From: Escherichia coli
Lineage (GTDB): Bacteria > Pseudomonadota > Gammaproteobacteria > Enterobacterales > Enterobacteriaceae
NCBI RefSeq assembly: GCF_003334355.1
Contig: NZ_QOWP01000013.1
Direction: 5' to 3' (one strand)
DNA length: 64,000 nucleotides
Of this stretch, positions 36,958 through 36,982 are shown one piece after another (the stretch's first letter is position 1; the number at the start of each line of letters is the position of its first letter). Below the pieces are notes generated by a model. It made no database searches. It was not told the DNA's origin and saw nothing but the letters and a program-made list of their open reading frames with translations. A program made the translations under genes and the position numbers.

Positions 36958-36982
36958 CCGGCAAAAACATCCCTTCAGCCGG
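36958..36982 (+). promoter_or_regulatory. pyrC leader hairpin overlapping the Shine-Dalgarno sequence
   Basis: ccggc-N15-gccgg inverted repeat whose 3' arm abuts GGAG 14 nt before the pyrC ATG; matches the known pyrimidine-sensitive start-site/hairpin mechanism. Confidence 0.55.

Follow-up and report, generated by a model that had tools for sequence, protein, structure and literature searches.

The pyrC leader hairpin of Escherichia coli and the extent and drift of its promoter-hairpin module across the Enterobacterales

We analysed a window of 64,000 nucleotides of Escherichia coli DNA that contains pyrC, the gene for dihydroorotase, and the short leader that precedes it. The pyrC open reading frame matches the TIGR00856 pyrC_dimer equivalog with 558 bits (cut-off 293, E = 5.6e-168), and its neighbours are the yceB lipoprotein gene and grxB upstream and dinI downstream. 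An intrinsic terminator follows the yceB reading frame, whose last position is 36890, and separates the pyrC promoter from yceB transcription. The features from that terminator to the end of pyrC are the following.

36895–36914, + strand: yceB intrinsic terminator, stem GAGGGCGC/GCGCCCTT followed by the T-run TATTTTTCGT (terminator scan, 8-pair stem with 6 GC pairs; inverted repeat).
36923–36928, + strand: probable −35 element GTGCAA, inferred from spacing and conservation (3/6 match to TTGACA, 17 bp upstream of the −10).
36929–36944, − strand: PurR operator (PUR box) GCGGAAACGTTTTCCT in the −35/−10 spacer (consensus match; palindromic core AAACGT/ACGTTT).
36946–36951, + strand: −10 hexamer TATCCT, the first six positions of the Rfam PyrC_leader match.
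36957–36961, + strand: alternative start cluster T6-C7-C8-G9-G10, counted from the −10 (positions from the sequence; start use from literature in PMC6524683).
36958–36962, + strand: 5′ arm of the hairpin, CCGGC (Rfam pairs, repeat search and folding), with U36957 as a possible sixth pair in longer transcripts.
36963–36977, + strand: loop AAAAACATCCCTTCA, 15 nt, of a length and sequence not conserved between genera.
36978–36982, + strand: 3′ arm of the hairpin, GCCGG, overlapping the Shine-Dalgarno sequence; the adjoining A36983 pairs with U36957.
36981–36984, + strand: Shine-Dalgarno sequence GGAG, invariant in 29 leaders and 11 nt upstream of the ATG.
36996–38042, + strand: pyrC coding sequence, dihydroorotase, 348 aa (open reading frame list, TIGR00856 and RefSeq annotation).

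The region belongs to the core E. coli chromosome and is present, with annotated yceB and pyrC, in 5425 of 5426 complete E. coli genomes. The 111 bases compared between 36900 and 37010 match K-12 W3110 exactly, and the 61-nt leader (36940–37000) is unchanged in 5404 of the 5425 genomes; the single variant inspected among the 21 that are not identical (ET729) carries a 1-nt deletion in the loop. Because the leader is identical to the K-12 sequence used in experiments, published results carry over to it directly. In one E. coli genome, NZ_AP029609.1, the match to 36850–37100 is split between two places. Its portion from query position 64 onward (about window position 36913) is unbroken, suggesting that something was inserted at the yceB terminator, a short way upstream of the pyrC promoter. 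Five matches to 36850–37100 are on plasmid-labelled records.

Within the promoter, Enterobacteriaceae and Erwinia loci share a GTGCAAA motif in the same position. A consensus promoter scan of positions 36700–37200 called no sigma-70 promoter. The pyrC promoter departs too much from consensus to be caught by such a scan, and we therefore did not count this result against it; conservation, the Rfam model and the literature are what support the −10 assignment. The bases that follow the −10 are T1 T2 G3 T4 G5 T6 C7 C8 G9 G10, where C7 is 36958, C8 is 36959 and G9 is 36960. The arrangement TATCCT-TTGTGT-CCGG places adjacent C and G candidate starts 7–10 nt downstream of the −10, and a shift of 2 nt between them removes the outer pairs of the hairpin.

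The PUR box is the only match to ACGCAAACGTTTTCNT in the 64-kb window at up to two mismatches, having exactly two, and at least one such match was found in 20 of 100 shuffles. According to the literature, it gives a separate, modest purine-dependent repression of pyrC transcription. PurR repression of pyrC and PurR binding there are attributed to papers cited in PMC3159470 and PMC6245113, and the ChIP-chip study in PMC3159470 did not recover the pyrC site.

The stretch from 36958 to 36982, CCGGCAAAAACATCCCTTCAGCCGG, had been read in an earlier note, made from the sequence alone, as an inverted repeat that sequesters the pyrC ribosome-binding site. The repeat is borne out: CCGGC at 36958–36962 and GCCGG at 36978–36982 are perfectly complementary across the 15-nt loop. 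A repeat search extends it by one pair to TCCGGC (36957–36962) and GCCGGA (36978–36983), which are 100% complementary over 6 bp. The placement of the 3′ arm needed correction, as it had been described as ending immediately before GGAG and the ATG. Its last two bases are instead the first two G's of GGAG (36981–36984), and the ATG (36996–36998) lies 11 nt downstream of GGAG. Counting the U36957–A36983 pair, the stem takes in three of the four Shine-Dalgarno bases. Sequestration of the ribosome-binding site gains plausibility from this overlap rather than losing it.

A GC-rich stem in the 5′ leader of a pyrimidine gene could also act as a transcription attenuator or terminator, and both pyrBI and pyrE use attenuation (PMC4491880). 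We rejected this candidate, since the stem is followed by GCCGGAGCATAGAG with no T-run and the terminator scan had no match at the site. The leader also has no leader peptide reading frame. We consider attenuation at this hairpin to be vanishingly unlikely.

The leader matches the Rfam family RF02372, PyrC_leader, at 36946–36995 on the + strand, over its full length (1–50 of 50) and with 68.7 bits against a gathering threshold of 50. The consensus structure of the family consists of the same five pairs, and the match ends directly before the ATG at 36996, on the same strand as pyrC.

Elsewhere in the window, Rfam matches at gathering level are the rne 5′ UTR element (14877–15213, +), the SraB sRNA (12848–13016, −), the ES056 sRNA (56263–56354, +) and the ES036 sRNA (46126–46168, +). 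A tRNA-Ser(GGA) gene occupies 61954–62041 (+), and a borderline RtT RNA match (46.3 bits, threshold 45) lies about 230 nt downstream of it at 62268–62404 (+).

As a bare sequence, the pyrC inverted repeat is not beyond chance. Transcripts of 53–56 nt fold with z-scores of about −0.9 to −1.25, and among 200 dinucleotide shuffles, 19 to 40 do as well or better. Moreover, 3.5% of the all-GC 5-mers in the window have a perfect reverse complement 3–20 nt upstream. These figures are what a functionless chance repeat, with pyrC regulated elsewhere, has in its favour: a z-score of about −1, 28 of 200 shuffles folding as well, and an upstream complement, within 20 nt, for about 3.5% of all-GC 5-mers. 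The bare stem is statistically unremarkable, and the argument for its function comes from context and comparison. The window has a single copy of the composite pattern TATCCT-N6-CCGGC-N(10-40)-GCCGGAG, and none of 100 shuffles has any. It is this composite pattern, together with the curated Rfam match and with arms that are conserved while the loop is not, that lifts the element above chance.

The comparison drew on species-representative genomes, which supplied 80 pyrC loci, and 29 Enterobacterales leaders were aligned over the interval between the −10 and the ATG (alignment A2). The earlier note had proposed a comparison with the pyrC leaders of other enterobacteria, and its outcome is that the arms are conserved and the loop varies. 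The only invariant columns are, in the −10, T1, A2, T3 and T6; in the 5′ arm, C13, C14, G15 and C17, or four of its five bases; GGAG (columns G36, G37, A38 and G39); and the ATG. The first 21 columns are without insertions or deletions, and the 5′ arm starts 7 nt after the −10 in all 29 species. The loop varies freely in sequence, and its length differs as well, being 15 nt in Escherichia and reaching about 85 nt in Edwardsiella.

The pairing of the two arms is specific to its register. An unguided RNAalifold calculation returned the hairpin helix as the sole consensus structure, and 94.3% of the aligned cells are paired, compared to 9–44% when the 3′ partner is slid by 1–3 columns. Covariation is scarce: two of the five pairs are constant throughout, and the only G-C to C-G swap, shared by both Yersinia species, is probably a single compensatory event. 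A shuffle control was not compelling, as 15 of 500 shuffles reached the covariation score and 178 of 500 the number of pairs changed on both sides. The comparative evidence therefore consists of conservation and register, not covariation. A chance origin of the hairpin is nevertheless extremely unlikely, given that its arms are invariant or nearly so in 29 leaders with differing loops, that sliding the partner lowers the pairing from 94% to 9–44%, and that the element is a curated Rfam family with mutational and start-site work in the literature, as cited in PMC6524683, PMC4491880 and PMC7818426.

The same alignment bears on a protein-binding alternative. CCGGC-N15-GCCGG is also a DNA palindrome that straddles the start site, and it might serve as an operator for a dimeric regulator. 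This candidate was rejected because its half-sites stand 15 to about 85 bp apart, depending on the genus. One half is fixed relative to the −10 and the other relative to the Shine-Dalgarno sequence, and such variable spacing with separate landmarks is incompatible with a protein site of fixed geometry. The only recognisable operator at the locus is the PurR box upstream. We therefore assign a DNA operator at the repeat a negligible probability.

In 27 of the 29 aligned leaders, there is an overlap between the 3′ arm and GGAG. A 4-nt AGAG insertion between GGAG and the ATG (within 36985–36995) is shared by E. coli and E. albertii and gives them a spacer of 11 nt compared to 6–9 nt in the other 27 leaders. 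Liu and Turnbough (1994) reportedly identified the functional Shine-Dalgarno sequence as the hairpin-embedded GGAG and not as a second purine-rich stretch nearer the ATG. Their assignment fits the alignment, where GGAG is invariant and the AGAG insertion is confined to these two species.

An Rfam scan of 40 related loci detected PyrC_leader only in E. albertii and two Citrobacter. The alignment shows the module in leaders that the scan missed, and we attribute the misses to the narrow reach of the model, which has a short loop, rather than to the absence of the element. In the missed leaders (L003–L014, L017, L018, L026, L029, L030 and L033), the −10/CCGGC...GCCGGAG module is likewise present, with a longer loop of between 20 and about 85 nt. 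The promoter-hairpin module extends well beyond Rfam detection, to Kluyvera, Erwinia, Rosenbergiella and Edwardsiella. Outside the Enterobacterales, inspection by eye of the Halomonadaceae, Vibrio, Photobacterium, Marinobacter and Marinobacterium loci found no CCGGC...GCCGGAG. The Vibrio hannami pyrC leader (L075) has a PUR-box-like GCGTAAACGTTTGCGT about 60 nt upstream of the ATG, followed by TATACT and CTCC, and a palindromic Shine-Dalgarno region AGGAGCTCCT about 10 nt upstream of the ATG. This palindromic region may be a different way of occluding the Shine-Dalgarno sequence.

We calculated the folding of E. coli transcripts with alternative 5′ ends, a comparison that the earlier note had also called for. 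Transcripts starting at C36958 or further upstream form the hairpin, and those that start at G36960 or G36961 largely do not. The predictions for each 5′ end are the following.

5′ end at 36957 or upstream (U or longer): pair probability 1.0, with 0.72–0.87 for U36957–A36983; isolated hairpin −8.9 kcal/mol.
5′ end at 36958 (C7): hairpin pair probability 0.97; isolated hairpin −8.1 kcal/mol.
5′ end at 36959 (C8): hairpin pair probability about 0.5; isolated hairpin −5.0 kcal/mol.
5′ end at 36960 (G9): hairpin pair probability about 0.2; isolated hairpin −3.0 kcal/mol.
5′ end at 36961 (G10): hairpin pair probability 0.04; no hairpin predicted.

The predicted cost of opening GGAG is 5.4–6.3 kcal/mol for the C7 transcript and 2.4–3.6 kcal/mol for the G9 transcript when 3′ ends are placed at +15 to +65, a gap of about 3 kcal/mol. 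When 100 nt of coding sequence are included, C and G starts are predicted to differ by less than 0.5 kcal/mol in Shine-Dalgarno accessibility, because the model then finds competing long-range pairings. We take this smaller difference to reflect a limit of thermodynamic modelling when the leader is translated co-transcriptionally, and it remains a caveat. In most genera that have CCGGC, folds started at positions 5–12 after the −10 show the cost of opening the Shine-Dalgarno sequence dropping by 2–4 kcal/mol between a position-7 and a position-9 start. The gap of about 3 kcal/mol between C7 and G9 transcripts, calculated with short 3′ context, gives thermodynamic support to the view, stated in reviews (PMC6524683 and PMC4491880), that the hairpin would lower translation initiation.

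The literature describes the corresponding regulation in E. coli and Salmonella. When CTP is high relative to GTP, pyrC transcription starts with C, 6–7 nt after the −10, and the two extra C's allow a hairpin that sequesters the ribosome-binding site; when the ratio is low, the transcript starts with G and is translated (PMC6524683, PMC7818426 and PMC4491880). Start choice responding to the CTP/GTP ratio has been reported for the identical K-12 sequence (PMC6524683 and PMC7818426). Start-site selection at pyrC is credited in PMC6524683 to Wilson et al. 1992, Sørensen et al. 1993 and Liu & Turnbough 1994, and literature cited there is reported to include stem-disrupting mutations that changed pyrimidine regulation and compensatory mutations that restored it. 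The possibility that all transcripts begin downstream of the 5′ arm, which the earlier note had named as fatal to its reading, is contradicted by start mapping as the reviews summarise it.

Combining these sources, we arrive at the following mechanism, in which the nucleotide-dependent start choice and its effect on translation are taken from the literature, and the anatomy, Rfam match, K-12 identity, fold and conservation from the present analysis. RNA polymerase at the weak pyrC promoter may start at C36958, C36959, G36960 or G36961. With a high CTP/GTP ratio, it would start at C and produce a transcript with the full 5′ arm CCGGC. This arm would pair with GCCGG at 36978–36982 and bury the first two G's of GGAG, so that ribosome loading would be poor and dihydroorotase output low. 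Under pyrimidine limitation (low CTP, high GTP), transcription would start at G36960 and the two outer C-G pairs would be missing. The 3-bp stem that is left would be unstable, the Shine-Dalgarno sequence would be free and pyrC would be translated. The PurR operator in the promoter spacer would add a small purine-dependent repression.

The same geometry admits a role in mRNA stability, whereby the hairpin mainly protects the long mRNA from 5′-end-dependent decay by RNase E and RppH instead of blocking the ribosome. The stem of the C7 transcript begins at the very first nucleotide, and such 5′-terminal stems are known to stabilise mRNAs against 5′-end-dependent decay. Degradation of the pyrC transcript is indeed affected (PMC6524683), but in the wrong direction for protection: transcripts that form the hairpin are those with low expression, and the long transcript decays faster, a change that PMC6524683 attributes to its reduced translation. 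Furthermore, the 3′ arm lies over GGAG in nearly all aligned leaders and does so even where it has been relocated, in Photorhabdus, and a protective stem needs no such overlap. A mainly protective role is therefore very unlikely, and translational control remains the preferred reading.

The earlier note's proposal of pyrimidine-dependent start-site selection is thus supported by the identity of the gene, by the Rfam match, by a leader that does not differ from that of K-12, by a predicted fold that changes with the 5′ end and by the published reviews. The element is almost certainly the known E. coli pyrC leader, which exerts translational control through a nucleotide-sensitive choice of start. 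Compared to the pyrC leader of K-12 and Salmonella Typhimurium (RF02372), it has the same gene, −10, CCGG starts, five pairs, GGAG overlap and PurR box. We found no difference from the K-12 leader; it is the same element in another E. coli strain. The pyrC leader hairpin is already a well-studied textbook case, and its presence here is no new biology. Only the comparative picture of the module's extent and drift is mildly new.

Among known systems, another close one is the pyrD leader of E. coli and Salmonella, which the reviews describe as having the same C/G start logic, a hairpin at the ribosome-binding site and PurR repression (PMC6524683, PMC3159470 and PMC7818426). It differs in belonging to the dihydroorotate dehydrogenase gene at another locus, outside the window, and the likeness is drawn from the descriptions in those reviews. 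A second group comprises pyrBI, codBA and upp-uraA of E. coli, with UTP-sensitive reiterative transcription and start-site switching. Stuttering at T/A tracts is the basis of these systems, and their effect is on productive transcription. Unlike them, pyrC has no homopolymer tract at its start, and its output is translational, through a hairpin in the mRNA. In this group, RNA polymerase likewise senses the pool of the initiating nucleotide and no regulatory protein takes part (PMC6524683).

The arms themselves have drifted in several lineages (loci L015, L016, L019–L025 and L027, with leaders at about 1420–1503 in most loci). In Pectobacterium, Brenneria, Rahnella, Acerihabitans and Hafnia, the 5′ arm is CCGCC, which places a C.C mismatch at the fourth pair; the G-C to C-G swap in Yersinia affects this same pair. 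Pectobacterium and Brenneria keep the step in the cost of opening the Shine-Dalgarno sequence (from about 5 to about 3 kcal/mol), and Rahnella, Hafnia, Acerihabitans and Yersinia show no drop between a position-7 and a position-9 start. Photorhabdus keeps CCGGC, and its perfect GCCGG has been relocated to just 3′ of GGA, where it still overlaps the Shine-Dalgarno sequence. Some lineages thus appear to have altered or lost the pairing. We advance only tentatively, and as a possibility with less than even chances, the wider proposition that the promoter-hairpin module is broader than Rfam detects, that its pairing has been altered or lost in some lineages and that their pyrC control may differ.

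The pyrC leader is a classic case of gene control that needs no regulatory protein, in which RNA polymerase reads the CTP/GTP ratio by the base with which it starts, and a difference of 2 nt at the mRNA's 5′ end decides whether the ribosome-binding site is hidden. A reading of the sequence alone picked out this genuine regulatory hairpin, even though the bare sequence is statistically plain. If the variant leaders regulate differently, or not at all, then pyrC control in the Enterobacterales would be more diverse than the E. coli and Salmonella model.
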